Origin: Gloeobacteraceae cyanobacterium SOY_34_metabat_159
GTDB lineage: Bacteria; Cyanobacteriota; Cyanobacteriia; Gloeobacterales; Gloeobacteraceae
Length of the DNA: 30,530 bases
Direction of reading: 5' to 3'
NCBI GenBank assembly: GCA_031399965.1
Contig: JANNPH010000071.1
Location: 1-30,530 of the forward strand
Part shown: piece after piece, positions 20,156-24,626 of the stretch
Position numbering within the stretch: position 1 is the first letter of the stretch
Layout of the letters: each line of letters opens with the position of its first letter
The notes under the pieces: model-generated
What the model was told of the DNA's origin: nothing
Databases searched by the model: none
The model's input: only the letters and a program-made list of their open reading frames with translations
Position numbers and translations under genes: made by a program

Positions 20156-20195
20156 TTGACCAGCCCCACGGCGATATATAGTAAGTTACCTAACT
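20156..20195 (+). promoter_or_regulatory. Putative MarR-gene promoter with overlapping operator
   Basis: TTGACC (20156-20161) is followed by TATAGT (20177-20182, 15-nt spacer) inside the run GATATATAGT. The inverted repeat AGTTA-cc-TAACT lies at 20184-20195, ending 13 nt before the MarR ATG. CCTAAC is at 20189-20194. Confidence 0.4.
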
Positions 20196-20208
20196 ACTAG
20201 GCCCTACT

Positions 20209-20718
20209 ATGTTCACACTGCCCGACATGCCACAGGATAGGGCGTTGCTGGAGTTGGCGGACCGGTTCTCTGAATCGGAAGCGACTTCTTTGAGAGCTTT
20301 CCTCGCCTTCCTGCACGTATCTGCTGAGACTTACGAAGCCTACAACGTCCACTTTGCCCGCTACGGCCTCTCGGACGGCCGCTTCAGCCTGTTGATTTTT
20401 CTACTCACCGAGCGCGAGCGGGTGCTGACGCCCTCCGATTGCGCCGAGCGGCTGGGCGTCACCCGCGCGACCGTCACGGGGTTGCTCGACGGTCTGGAGC
20501 GCGAAGGGTTGATCAGAAGGGAGCCGCGCCCTGGGGATGGACGGATGTTGGCGGTACGCCTGACCGAACAGGGTCAAAAACTGCTCGAAGGCATGCTGCC
20601 GGACCATTTTCGGCGGATCACGGCCTTCACTTCCCACCTCACCGAAATCGAAAAAATGCTGCTGATCTCGCTCATTGTCAGGCTGCGGGCCGGGCTGCTC
20701 GCCTTGAGCGAACGTTAA
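20209..20718 (+). CDS. MarR-family transcriptional regulator
   Basis: A 169-aa ORF. The winged-helix core is LTPSDCAERLGVTRATVTGLLDGLEREGLIRREPRPGDGRMLAVRLTEQGQKLL. Confidence 0.9.
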   Translation: MFTLPDMPQDRALLELADRFSESEATSLRAFLAFLHVSAETYEAYNVHFARYGLSDGRFSLLIFLLTERERVLTPSDCAERLGVTRATVTGLLDGLEREGLIRREPRPGDGRMLAVRLTEQGQKLLEGMLPDHFRRITAFTSHLTEIEKMLLISLIVRLRAGLLALSER

Positions 20719-20740
20719 AGCGTCGAATCGGGCATTTTCA

Positions 20741-20781
20741 GGGCCCGCTGCCACTTCCTGGCAGGAAGCGTCAGCGGGCCC
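20741..20781 (+). terminator. GC-rich stem-loop 22 nt after the MarR stop (terminator-like, no U-tract)
   Basis: GGGCCCGCTG (20741-20750) pairs with CAGCGGGCCC (20772-20781). An inner palindrome CTTCCTG/CAGGAAG is separated by a 3x3 internal loop. Confidence 0.4.
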
Positions 20782-20860
20782 CACTGAACACATCGGCGAC
20801 GGGAATCCGAAGGCAAAATAAAATTTTTATTAGCCGCCATACTAAATCGAGATTCTCTGC

Positions 20861-20883
20861 TACTATATGTTTAGGCGCCTAAC
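20861..20883 (+). promoter_or_regulatory. Putative promoter/operator of the ACP-KS-CLF operon
   Basis: TACTATAT (a -10-like element, 20861-20868) is preceded by the A/T tract AAAATAAAATTTTTATTAG. The perfect 12-bp palindrome TTAGGCGCCTAA lies at 20871-20882. CCTAAC at 20878-20883 sits at the same 9-nt distance from TATAT as in the MarR promoter. Confidence 0.4.
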
Positions 20884-21093
20884 AAACAGCCGCCCCACAA
20901 GTAGTCCCGCTGAATCCTTCCCCGATGCTCCGACGCCTTCTAGAAGTCAGTTGAAGCGACGGCCAGCGAACGAAGTTTCTTTATTTTCAGACCCGAGCGG
21001 AACATCCTGCCCAGTGACTCCGCGTGCTCGTTTACCAAGACGGGCTGATTTAGGCAAAACCTTAGACCCTATCAATCTAAATCGGAGCAAGAA

Positions 21094-22646: not shown

Positions 22647-23814
22647 CCACCAACCCTGCGCAATCACCGGAGCCGGCTTTGCAACGCCGATGGGCAACGA
22701 CCCAGATGCGCTCTGGAACACCTTGAAGCAAGGCAAGCCTCTGTTTGACGCCTTCGCACCCCAGCTAAACGGCCCGACCTACCAGGTCGCCCGCGTCCAT
22801 GACAGCACTCTCGACCACCGACTACCCAGTCGGCAGTTGCGCAAGCTCGACCGCTTCACGATCCTGGCGTTGGCGGCCTCGCACCAGGCACTCGCCAGTT
22901 GCGGCCTCGAAATTAGCGACAGCAATCGCGATCGGATCGGCATCTACCTCGGCAACAGCACCGGCGGCTGGGGTTTTGTGGAGCCAATCCTGGAAGCGGT
23001 CTACGCGACCCAGATGCGGACAGCCAGTCCTTACGCAGTCACCGCCTGGTTTCCCTCGGCTCCCCAGGGTGAGATTTCGATCCTCTACAAAATTGGCGGC
23101 TTCAGCAAAACCATCGCCGCCGACCGGATCAGTGCCGGGCTGGCCCTGGAGCAGGCCGTCCGCAAAATTGACACGGGCTCCATGGATGCGATGCTCGTCG
23201 GCGGTGCCGAATCTCCCTTCAGCGGCCTGTTGTTAAACGCCTACCAGGCAAGCGGACACTCCTCAAGCAGCGGACAATACCGGCCCTTCAGCCGTGCGGC
23301 GGACGGTAGCCTGCTCGGTGAAGGGGCAGCTCTATTTGTCGTGGAAGGGGAAGCACAGGCCCGCGCGCGCGGCGCCAATATCCACTGCCGGGTACTGGGC
23401 ATCGGCAAGGGACGCTCTCTAGCCCCGGCCATCTGGAATTGCCTGCGTGCGGCGAACGTACCGCAGGAGGCAATCGACTACGTCGTCCTCGACGGCAGCG
23501 GTCGCCCGGACGCAGACCAGGGCGAGTACCAGGCAATTGCCGAAACCCTCGGCCGCAATCCAAATCTGCGCATGAGCGCACCCAAATCGATGTACGGCGA
23601 CCTCCTGGGTGCCGGCATGGCGGTCGATCTGTTGATCGGCGCATTGAGTCTGGAGCGACAGGCCGTGCTCCCGACCGCGATATCGGGCTTAATCGAAGTG
23701 CCGCCCGTCGGCAAACACGTCCTGGCAGCTGAGTCCTGCCCTCTAGAGTACGTACTCGTAAACGGGCGCGACGAGGCCGGGCAGAGCCTCGTAGTGCTGC
23801 TTGGTCGGGCCTGA
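22639..23814 (+). CDS. Catalytically inactive KS paralogue (KS-beta / chain-length-factor-like partner)
   Basis: A 391-aa ORF. Its ATG overlaps the KS stop (ATGTATAA), and GAGGGGG lies upstream. It has the thiolase/KS fold pattern (CAITGAGFATPMGN, LVGGAES, KSMYGDLLGAG). However, the nucleophile region reads TIAADRISAG with no Cys, and both His positions are Asp (LDGSGRP, YGDLLG). Confidence 0.85.
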   Translation: MYNHQPCAITGAGFATPMGNDPDALWNTLKQGKPLFDAFAPQLNGPTYQVARVHDSTLDHRLPSRQLRKLDRFTILALAASHQALASCGLEISDSNRDRIGIYLGNSTGGWGFVEPILEAVYATQMRTASPYAVTAWFPSAPQGEISILYKIGGFSKTIAADRISAGLALEQAVRKIDTGSMDAMLVGGAESPFSGLLLNAYQASGHSSSSGQYRPFSRAADGSLLGEGAALFVVEGEAQARARGANIHCRVLGIGKGRSLAPAIWNCLRAANVPQEAIDYVVLDGSGRPDADQGEYQAIAETLGRNPNLRMSAPKSMYGDLLGAGMAVDLLIGALSLERQAVLPTAISGLIEVPPVGKHVLAAESCPLEYVLVNGRDEAGQSLVVLLGRA

Positions 23815-23863
23815 CCCGCTGCGGGCGACATCGTAAGGCAGGTGGGGTTCGTGGAGTCCCCGT

Positions 23864-23919
23864 TTGAGAAACTTGTGCTGTATTTCTCAAGCTTAGACAA
23901 GAGTCGTCCTGAAGGACGA
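23864..23919. terminator. Two weak hairpins in the convergent CLF-like / TetR intergenic region
   Basis: The first is TTGAGAAA (11-nt loop) TTTCTCAA at 23864-23890. The second is TCGTCC tgaa GGACGA at 23904-23919. Neither has a clear U-tract. Confidence 0.25.
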
Positions 23920-23941
23920 GGCTTGCACCCATTCCCAGGGG

Positions 23942-24601
23942 TCAGATAGGAGCCGCCTCGACCGGTTGCAAACCGCTGCCTTGTAGCATCAATGTCAGCA
24001 CCGTGCGTTTCCAGCACTCAAAATGTTCGGACTGGTCGATGTTTTCGTCGTAAAAGCCCTGCATATATTGCATCTGCGAAAAATACGAGAAGCAGAGCAT
24101 CATCCCCGCAAGGAGAAATGCACGCACATCGAGATCGGCGCGCAGATAGTTTTGTTTTTGAGCAGCTTCAAAGTAGCTCACCACCTGCTCAAAAGTCTGG
24201 CGGCGAAAACCGAGGGTGCTGAGGTGGGTCCCTTCGCTGGTCACTTCCCAGCTAATCAGGCGCACGTAGAGGCGGTGGGTCGAAAGAAAGTCGAAGTAGC
24301 TGTTGAGCAGGCGGGTAAACATGTCGCTCGGGTGCAACTCTTCTTGCAACAGATGCAGGCTCAGCTCGATCATCGGCTTGAGGTGTTTTTCGAGCACTGC
24401 CTGGTAGAGACCTTCTTTGCTGCCGTAGTGGTAGTAGATCATGCGCTTGTTGATGCAGGCCACCCGGGCGATTTCATCGACGCGGGTGCCGACGAACCCG
24501 AGACGGGCAAAAAACATTTCAGCGGTCTCAAGGATGCGCCGGGCCGAGCTTGTACAGTTTTTGTCCTGGGCTGATTGTGTGGATTCTGGCGTGCTGTTCA
24601 T
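23942..24601 (-). CDS. TetR/AcrR-family transcriptional regulator
   Basis: A 219-aa ORF starting at ATG 24601. The N-terminal HTH is ARRILETAEMFFARLGFVGTRVDEIARVACINKRMIYYHYGSKEGLY. Confidence 0.9.
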   Translation of the reverse strand: MNSTPESTQSAQDKNCTSSARRILETAEMFFARLGFVGTRVDEIARVACINKRMIYYHYGSKEGLYQAVLEKHLKPMIELSLHLLQEELHPSDMFTRLLNSYFDFLSTHRLYVRLISWEVTSEGTHLSTLGFRRQTFEQVVSYFEAAQKQNYLRADLDVRAFLLAGMMLCFSYFSQMQYMQGFYDENIDQSEHFECWKRTVLTLMLQGSGLQPVEAAPI

Positions 24602-24614
24602 TTAGGTACGCATG

Positions 24615-24626
24615 GTTCTGCAGAAC
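24615..24626. promoter_or_regulatory. Perfect 12-bp palindrome GTTCTGCAGAAC, candidate TetR operator
   Basis: It lies 13 nt upstream of the TetR ATG, in the divergent TetR/MutS2 intergenic region. Confidence 0.35.

Follow-up and report, generated by a model that had tools for sequence, protein, structure and literature searches.

A carrier protein, a ketosynthase and a non-catalytic partner in Gloeobacteraceae: a probable minimal type II polyketide synthase reduced from a larger conserved cluster

Type II polyketide synthases (PKSs) outside the actinobacteria are few and poorly understood. The locus described here lies in a 30,530-nt stretch of DNA (contig JANNPH010000071.1, assembly GCA_031399965.1; hereafter the window) from Gloeobacteraceae cyanobacterium SOY_34_metabat_159, and comprises genes for an acyl carrier protein (ACP), a ketosynthase (KS) and a KS-like partner resembling a chain-length factor (CLF), preceded by a MarR-family regulator gene. 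Gloeobacter is the deepest-branching cyanobacterial lineage. In the classical act system, the gene order is KS-CLF-ACP, whereas the cassette reads ACP-KS-CLF, and act has a ketoreductase (KR), an aromatase and a cyclase, none of which is found in the cassette. The ant cluster of Photorhabdus luminescens, responsible for an anthraquinone, reportedly carries a dedicated phosphopantetheinyl transferase (PPTase), a ketoreductase, cyclases/aromatase, a CoA ligase and a hydrolase; in the window, the ketoreductase, cyclases/aromatase, CoA ligase and hydrolase have no counterpart. The act KS/CLF (PDB 1TQY) is a heterodimer of a KS and a Cys-less KS-like partner, and the cassette genes predict a pair of the same kind. 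The Photorhabdus proteins AntD, AntE and AntF (PDB 6SMO/6SMP) share with the cassette a non-actinobacterial origin and a discrete ACP.

A cyanobacterial system, the gloPKS of Gloeocapsa sp. PCC 7428, consists of a KS-CLF pair and an ACP, with transcriptionally coupled ks and clf genes and proteins that are FabF-like relative to actinobacterial pairs (PMC11744666). It requires a suitable PPTase, is primed with salicylate through a salicylate-CoA ligase and resembles the thermorubin cluster (PMC11744666). The cassette shares with gloPKS the coupled cyanobacterial KS-CLF and ACP but belongs to a different cluster type, and a gloPKS/thermorubin identity was rejected on this ground; Gloeocapsa appeared neither among the named homologues nor in the partner-family genome scan, a pattern scan that could have missed it. 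Outside polyketide synthesis, the anammox pair amxFabF2/amxFabFmut combines a FabF-like active subunit with a mutated-triad paralogue in an obligate heterodimer encoded in a lipid (ladderane) cluster (bioRxiv 10.64898/2026.05.19.726425), and offers a functional analogy to the cassette pair.

Compared with these systems, the cassette is read here as a minimal type II PKS that arose when a larger conserved aromatic-polyketide cluster lost genes, a reading to which we give a probability of roughly 0.6. It has the features of a type II minimal PKS save three: the KS triad is Cys-His-Asn, the partner bears Arg in place of the CLF Gln, and no cyclases are present. A preliminary description, made from the letters of the window, had proposed the same enzyme class, namely the non-catalytic half of a KS/CLF pair together with an ACP, and this proposal is upheld by tree placement, by CLF signatures and by relatives residing in cyclase-bearing clusters. 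The ACP, KS and partner genes, with the lengths proposed for them, and all other open reading frames (ORFs) named there were recovered in an ORF check.

The KS and partner genes are tightly coupled. As had been proposed, the partner ATG overlaps the KS stop codon, the overlap measuring 8 nt (ATGTATAA, 22639-22646), and the same KS-then-partner order, with a spacing of -25 to +49 nt, recurs in 30 loci whose GC content ranges from 31 to 72%, so the arrangement is not due to chance. The active site of the partner is dismantled, with Asp162-Arg163 at the Cys position, Asp285 at the first catalytic His (His-1) and Asp321 at the second (His-2), leaving neither the nucleophilic Cys nor either His in a protein encoded beside the KS. 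The missing Cys, the Asp at both His positions and the absence of the Gln of actinobacterial CLFs agree with the preliminary description, to which Arg163 is added here. In the act CLF, Gln occupies the Cys position and Arg the second His. Across the partner family (n=47), the Cys position is mostly Arg (29 sequences), followed by Ala (6), Asn (4), Ser (3), Gln (1) and other residues (4), while Asp stands at His-1 in 44 and an acidic residue precedes the Cys position in 44. The Asp at His-1 and the acidic residue (E-Q in the act CLF) are common to the partner family and the act CLF, as is the AWF of the loop that precedes the active site (TAWFPSAPQGEISI in the partner family and SFAWFYAVNTGQISI in the act CLF, against VPMMIPDMATGQISI in FabF). 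Overall identity between the window partner and the act CLF is low (90 bits). In a neighbour-joining (NJ) tree with 100 bootstraps, the partner family, the act CLF and the Streptomyces CLF P0054 group together with a support of 100 and the FabFs fall outside, although in such a distance tree long-branch attraction is possible.

The KS is catalytically odd. Its nucleophile, Cys161, is present as described, and His301 and Lys333 are kept, but it is not a standard intact KS: Asn338 replaces the second catalytic His, yielding a Cys-His-Asn triad (Cys-His-His in AntD), and the active-site neighbourhood is remodelled. This second position is His in all 23 family KSs extracted, as well as in KAS I/II enzymes, AntD, the act KS and FabF; the equivalent Asn was found only in the window KS and in its G. 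morelensis orthologue, the KS of ‘cassette 2’, which is 95% identical. The window lineage carries five private substitutions, present in both Gloeobacter species, at sites that are invariant in 29 other family KSs, and three of the five lie in catalytic motifs (TGC to TAC beside the Cys, NAHG to YAHG beside His-1, and GH to GN). The motif ‘ACAS’ of the window KS is FabF-like, where the family has ‘GCTG’.

The KS groups with the KS-alpha type and not with FabF/FabB. Among solved structures its best match is AntD (301 bits), followed by the act KS (290) and the best FabF (278), and the gap is wider for a typical family KS (318, 297 and 280 bits, respectively). In the NJ tree, the KS family joins AntD with a support of 100 and then the act KS with 86, again with the FabFs outside; a C-terminal ‘SGFSGIHS’ motif is common to AntD and the window KS. 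Both proteins score below the cut-off of 494 bits for the TIGR03150 fabF model (KS 365, partner 186). A housekeeping FabF/FabB identity, part of one outcome that the preliminary description had named as speaking against it, was rejected on the sub-cut-off scores, the position of both proteins outside the FabF clade and the Cys-His-Asn triad. G. morelensis carries two KS/partner cassettes. A cispentacin-type AmcF/AmcG/AmcB system was also rejected, since the AmcF model, with a cut-off of 325 bits, gave 189 for the KS and 84 for the partner, and the AmcB score was 21 bits where 80 is required.

The carrier protein completes the set. Its phosphopantetheine site is Ser34 in DVGMDSLE (the GMDSLE motif), and its gene, in the same operon, ends 35 nt upstream of the KS gene. 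Of the domain models suggested earlier as a check, those for the ketoacyl synthase N and C regions matched both the KS and the partner, while the PP-binding match of the ACP is weak, slightly below the Pfam cut-off. The ACP nevertheless aligns with the ACPs of all related loci, whether of the cassette or the full-cluster type. Relative to G. morelensis, dN/dS is 0.09 for MarR, 0.20 for the ACP, 0.19 for the KS and 0.12 for the partner, comparable to the neighbouring transport genes. None of the four ORFs is disrupted in the window or in G. morelensis, nor in a Logan assembly made independently. The cassette genes are under purifying selection and are maintained, not decaying.

The origin of the cassette is indicated by its relatives. 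About 47 relatives were found, mostly in a conserved larger cluster; in the partner search, a tight family is followed by a drop in score from 209 to 155 bits towards generic FabF, and a profile search of 1.84 billion representatives yielded about 30 single-domain clusters (50% identity) above about 350 bits. The core of the full cluster consists of a HemN-like radical SAM (rSAM) gene, an ACP, two to three small SRPBCC cyclase-like genes, a FAD monooxygenase, a PF04199 cyclase, a small unknown gene, the KS and the partner, sometimes with a DUF2461 gene. Variable genes encode glutathione S-transferases (GSTs) and an O-methyltransferase (both in cyanobacteria), an exporter made of a membrane-fusion protein (MFP), FtsX and an ABC ATPase, a MarR regulator and a PPTase. 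The hosts include Nostoc, Microcystis, Richelia, Dolichospermum, several Chlamydiae, Myxococcus, metagenome-assembled genomes of Gammaproteobacteria, Streptomyces flavofungini, Frankia umida, Kribbella, Actinophytocola and Bacillus sp. MCCB 382. The expectation that discrete KS/CLF systems are rare in cyanobacteria needs correction, as members of this family are found in Nostoc, Microcystis, Dolichospermum, Richelia and Gloeobacter. For neither the Gloeobacter cassette nor the rSAM full cluster was an assigned product found in the open-access literature searched, in line with the novelty check set earlier. The coelulatin cluster (a type II PKS with a HemN-like rSAM, PMC9714029) differs in gene set and organisation and is not the same cluster.

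The cassette and the full cluster have orthologous KS, partner and ACP genes (and MarR in locus L034), with the same KS-partner coupling and the same partner motifs; identities to full-cluster proteins are 41-59% for the KS, 32-56% for the partner and 31-45% for the ACP. Missing from the window are the HemN-like rSAM methyltransferase, the cyclases, the monooxygenase, DUF2461, the small unknown gene, the GSTs and the O-methyltransferase. In the full cluster, the SRPBCC cyclase-like, FAD monooxygenase, PF04199 cyclase and small unknown genes, sometimes with DUF2461, sit between the ACP and the KS, and the full cluster of L034 starts with MarR-ACP and ends with KS-partner, its 169-aa MarR being 48% identical to that of the window. 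In an anchor BLAST, the full-cluster loci yielded the rSAM, cyclase and monooxygenase genes, whereas the cassette-type loci L002, L006 and L007 did not. In the NJ tree, whose internal resolution is weak, cassette-type sequences nest among those of cyanobacterial full clusters. In the simplest reading, the Gloeobacter cassette looks like a full cluster from which the genes between the ACP and the KS, along with the tailoring genes, have been removed. The order ACP-KS-CLF, confirmed here and earlier considered unusual, is explained by this loss.

The short cassette MarR-ACP-KS-partner occurs in the window, in G. morelensis (cassette 2, L031) and in the metagenomic locus L007, where, as in the window, the cassette is preceded by an NB-ARC/WD40 gene and lies near an exporter that includes an MFP. 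Its paralogue, ‘cassette 1’ (L002, L006), is present in G. violaceus and G. morelensis, where the partner gene is followed, convergently, by genes for a PPTase, a thioesterase (TE), an ACP, a KR-dehydratase (DH) protein and a KS-acyltransferase (AT)-ACP protein. The cassette 1 KS of G. morelensis has a normal His, whereas cassette 2 is of the window's type; G. violaceus has only cassette 1 among the matches listed.

Several variations were observed in the wider family. A highly syntenic rSAM full cluster with a non-Gln CLF is found at L003, L004, L008, L013, L018, L023, L026 and L033-L036. A single protein of about 235-245 aa joins the ACP to the first SRPBCC cyclase-like domain in Chlamydiae, Richelia and Myxococcus (L008, L009, L014, L016-L021, L036), whereas Nostoc and Microcystis encode the two separately. 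Proteins of about 800-870 aa (P0255, P0274, P0281, P0290 and others) match the partner profile in two stretches and may be natural KS-CLF fusions or tandem KSs.

The features of the window are collected in Table 1. The GC content of the window is about 63%. Positions 11691-23827 are collinear with G. morelensis CP063845 at 92.6% nucleotide identity, which places the source in Gloeobacter, near this species. This common block contains MbtH, the HetI-like PPTase, the 127-aa unknown, the ABC ATPase, the MFP, orf255, NB-ARC/WD40, MarR, ACP, KS and partner. On the right, synteny ends directly after the partner stop codon, the next gene in G. morelensis being ribF; the left limit is 11691, 45 nt upstream of the start codon of the type I PKS, and a small plus-strand gene takes the place of the PKS in G. 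morelensis. The 12.1-kb MbtH-to-partner block thus has different flanking genes on both sides in the window and in G. morelensis (L031), and for this reason behaves as a discrete unit. From the hybrid non-ribosomal peptide synthetase (NRPS)-PKS (window 1-12046, minus strand), only the MbtH gene falls within the block. The TetR gene, MutS2 and the left-hand hybrid NRPS-PKS lie outside the conserved unit, and the PPTase and exporter inside it.

Table 1. Features of the window discussed in the text, with coordinates, strand and supporting match or position.
Feature	Coordinates	Strand	Support or remark
NRPS C-A module, runs off the left window end	1-2736	-	annotation
Type II TE	2749-3531	-	annotation
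Fused ABC exporter	~3554-5194	-	annotation
Type I PKS, KS-AT-DH-(ER)-KR-ACP (ER, enoylreductase)	5260-11646	-	annotation
MbtH-like gene	11786-12046	-	annotation
Sfp/HetI-type PPTase	12056-12829	-	Pfam ACPS, AASDHPPT_N; NCBIfam HetI 222 bits
Unknown ORF, 127 aa, after the ABC ATPase	12834-13216		
ABC ATPase	13379-14107	-	Pfam + NCBIfam matches
MFP	14139-15446	-	Pfam + NCBIfam matches
NB-ARC/WD40 (STAND-type) gene, directly upstream of marR	16497-20098	+	Pfam WD40
Candidate operator for MarR: imperfect palindrome TAGTAAGTTACCTAACTACTA shortly before the marR start	20179-20199		sequence reading
MarR-family regulator, 169 aa	20209-20718	+	Pfam MarR_2, 50 bits
Terminator-like hairpin after marR, 20-bp arms	20741-20781	+	inverted repeat I1, 90% complementary
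Palindrome GTTTAGG-CG-CCTAAC, candidate operator	20869-20883		~210 nt upstream of the ACP gene
ACP, 89 aa	21094-21363	+	PP-binding 19 bits; NCBIfam ACP 31 bits
KS (KS-alpha type), 415 aa	21399-22646	+	ketoacyl-synt N 152 bits, C 93 bits
CLF-like non-catalytic partner, 391 aa	22639-23814	+	ketoacyl-synt N 116 bits, C 49 bits
TetR gene, convergent	23942-24601	-	annotation

The description of the cassette as an orphan unit is not borne out, as the 12-kb block carries the HetI-like PPTase and an MFP/ABC exporter, with the hybrid NRPS-PKS next door. Likewise, the statement that no KR, DH, AT or TE gene is adjacent holds for the immediate neighbours, but the window also holds a type I PKS, a type II TE, MbtH, a PPTase and an NRPS module. 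No cyclase/aromatase or ketoreductase was annotated at 20100-24700 or in the 12-kb conserved block; a HemN-like rSAM, SRPBCC cyclases, a FAD monooxygenase and a PF04199 cyclase are likewise missing from the annotation of the whole window, and Rfam gave no matches in it. The window PPTase is 43% identical to the PPTase encoded directly downstream of the partner gene in cassette 1 of G. violaceus and G. morelensis, PPTase genes also occur in the full clusters L035 and L036, and the window enzyme is the likely activator of the cassette ACP. The MFP and ABC ATPase pair is a possible exporter of the block; it lies within the G. morelensis-syntenic part, and MFP/FtsX/ABC exporters recur in full clusters. 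The adjoining MFP (DevB/DarC-like) and ABC ATPase (DarD/MacB/DevA-like) genes come without an FtsX-type permease gene, while full clusters elsewhere show MFP-FtsX-ATPase. The NB-ARC/WD40 gene is syntenic in G. morelensis L031 and in L007, with 48% identity to the latter. Relative to G. morelensis, it contains a 23-nt insertion (window 16769-16815) with a tandem copy of GCCGTCCCGGAGCCTGCTGT, so that its first ~100 codons (ORF 16497-16832) and the remainder (16814-20098) are in different frames; possible causes are a true frameshift, variation in repeat length and a fault of the assembly.

Of the two regulators said to bracket the cassette, only MarR belongs to it: the MarR gene is conserved in Gloeobacter cassettes 1 and 2, L007 and L034, and the TetR gene is absent from the G. 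morelensis synteny. Besides its similarity to the L034 protein, the window MarR is 97% identical to that of G. morelensis cassette 2, 44% to that of L007 and 33% to that of Gloeobacter cassette 1. The palindrome upstream of marR is kept in G. morelensis save one base. The hairpin behind marR separates this gene from the ACP-KS-partner unit; both of its arms differ in G. morelensis, yet the stem is preserved. Further downstream, the palindrome before the ACP gene is preceded by TACTATAT, a candidate -10 region, and in G. morelensis its arms are conserved and its central dinucleotide is changed. The compensated hairpin and the conserved palindromes suggest separate, MarR-controlled transcription units. 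A consensus promoter scan gave no matches. The marR-ACP spacer also contains an AT-rich palindrome, GGCAAAATAAAATTTTTATTAGCC (20812-20835), kept in G. morelensis with one extra A.

From this arrangement, a course of events can be proposed. The marR gene would form its own hairpin-ended transcription unit, with MarR probably keeping its own gene and the ACP-KS-partner operon repressed as long as no ligand is bound. The translationally coupled KS and dead partner would then assemble into a KS/CLF-type heterodimer, as homology and gene coupling suggest, while the ACP would receive its phosphopantetheine arm at Ser34, the HetI-like PPTase of the 12-kb block being the likeliest enzyme for this step, and would be loaded with malonate by the cell's FabD. 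Malonate loading of the ACP by FabD is established for other type II PKSs. Cys161 would carry the growing chain, His301 and Asn338 would support decarboxylative Claisen condensation, and the partner would shape the chain-length pocket. Asn338 may replace the second His as a hydrogen-bond donor, as in Cys-His-Asn condensing enzymes, this being the working triad of FabH and chalcone synthases. Because no KR, cyclase or aromatase remains, the expected product is a short unreduced polyketide, which may cyclise spontaneously or be released by a thioesterase, or else an ACP-bound intermediate that a different enzyme takes over. Export of the product may run through the neighbouring MFP/ABC system.

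Several observations weigh against this reading. The private KS substitutions may have altered or abolished condensation activity. With Arg163, the partner lacks the presumed priming Gln of classical type II systems, which casts doubt on the starter unit. Overall scores place the partner no nearer to solved CLFs than to FabFs: its family profile scores 233 bits against FabF, 200 against the act CLF and 182 against AntE, and its grouping with CLFs in the distance tree could partly reflect long-branch attraction. Nor does structure prediction separate CLF from FabF, as the AlphaFold2 (AF2) monomer model of the partner (pLDDT 89) has a KAS II fold and a fold search with it returned FabFs only (TM 0.85-0.88). 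The conserved block contains no cyclase, KR, AT or dedicated release enzyme, which speaks against taking a self-sufficient pathway for granted.

The cassette might instead serve the neighbouring type I PKS/NRPS, making or extending a starter unit on its own ACP or acting as a KS/CLF in trans, with a shared PPTase and TE; HglD/HglC (heterocyst glycolipid) and the PfaC KS-CLF of polyunsaturated fatty acid (PUFA)-type synthases would be models by analogy. We consider this unlikely. The gene content around both cassettes invites it, since the cassette 1 partner gene of G. violaceus and G. morelensis adjoins the PPTase, TE, ACP, KR-DH and KS-AT-ACP genes, and the window has a related PPTase, a TE (47% identical to that of cassette 1), MbtH, a type I PKS and an NRPS 8-20 kb upstream, with the MbtH gene even inside the common block; a partner without the priming Gln would also fit an external starter. 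The common block, however, starts short of the PKS start codon, where G. morelensis has another gene. The NB-ARC/WD40-MarR-ACP-KS-partner unit recurs in L007, where the nearest 10 kb contain no PKS, and among the other family members examined none showed linkage to a type I PKS. Between the window PKS and that of cassette 1, identity is only 29% and the architectures differ. An outright heterocyst-glycolipid/PUFA KS-CLF identity, considered for cassette 1 on account of its neighbours, was rejected, as the pair is AntD/AntE-like by sequence and the PUFA-synthase match is weak (PfaA model 87 bits); these systems remain a functional rival only.

That the cassette is a non-condensing relic of the full cluster, with another role or not yet decayed, is improbable. 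It would account for the loss of all cyclase and tailoring genes, for the second catalytic His lost from the KS with changes beside Cys and His-1, and for the frameshift in the adjacent NB-ARC/WD40 gene, but it sits poorly with four ORFs intact in all three assemblies, with dN/dS values (0.09-0.20) as low as those of the transport genes, and with five KS substitutions shared by both species and hence fixed and maintained; Cys161, His301 and Lys333 are kept, and the triad works elsewhere, in FabH and chalcone synthases. Still less probable is a specialised fatty-acid elongation pair, a FabF with a dead FabF in the manner of amxFabF2/amxFabFmut, making an unusual lipid and not a polyketide. The fabF model is the best NCBIfam model for both proteins, albeit below cut-off, and the KS has the FabF-like ‘ACAS’ motif; both proteins nonetheless fall outside FabF in the tree. 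The heteromeric FabF-like chains of PDB 9s5h, presumably the anammox pair, score 223 bits with the KS and 88 with the partner, below AntD, the act KS and FabF. KS/CLF-like FabF heterodimers are known in lipid pathways (bioRxiv 10.64898/2026.05.19.726425), but the conserved block contains no FabG/FabZ/FabI-type gene, the sole candidate being orf255 with a weak short-chain dehydrogenase/reductase (SDR) N-terminal match, and the relatives all sit with polyketide cyclases.

Within the preferred reading of a reduced minimal type II PKS, a more speculative and rather doubtful extension concerns its purpose. The cyclase-less unit may make a small unreduced polyketide to which its own MarR, and perhaps also the NB-ARC/WD40 STAND protein, responds as a ligand, so forming a signalling circuit and not an antibiotic pathway; Gloeobacter would then have two paralogous copies of the unit, in one of which the KS has been rebuilt to Cys-His-Asn on a KAS II scaffold beside an Arg-bearing CLF.

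In conclusion, the cassette is real and conserved; it belongs to a well-understood enzyme class but departs from it in mechanistic details. There is demand for soluble KS/CLF pairs from outside the actinobacteria, both for in-vitro studies and for engineering (PMC11744666). The locus presents three natural experiments: a KS/CLF/ACP set on which purifying selection continues to act although all cyclases are gone, a Cys-His-Asn triad in a ketosynthase of KAS II fold, and a CLF family that mostly has Arg where the ‘essential’ Gln would be expected. For genome mining, it points to a conserved rSAM type II PKS cluster across at least six phyla, Chlamydiae included. If the cassette is an accessory of the NRPS-PKS or inactive, its interest would be mainly evolutionary, as an example of cluster reduction; if the signalling reading is true, it would be a tractable entry to a cross-phylum family spanning cyanobacteria, Chlamydiae, actinobacteria, myxobacteria and Bacillus.

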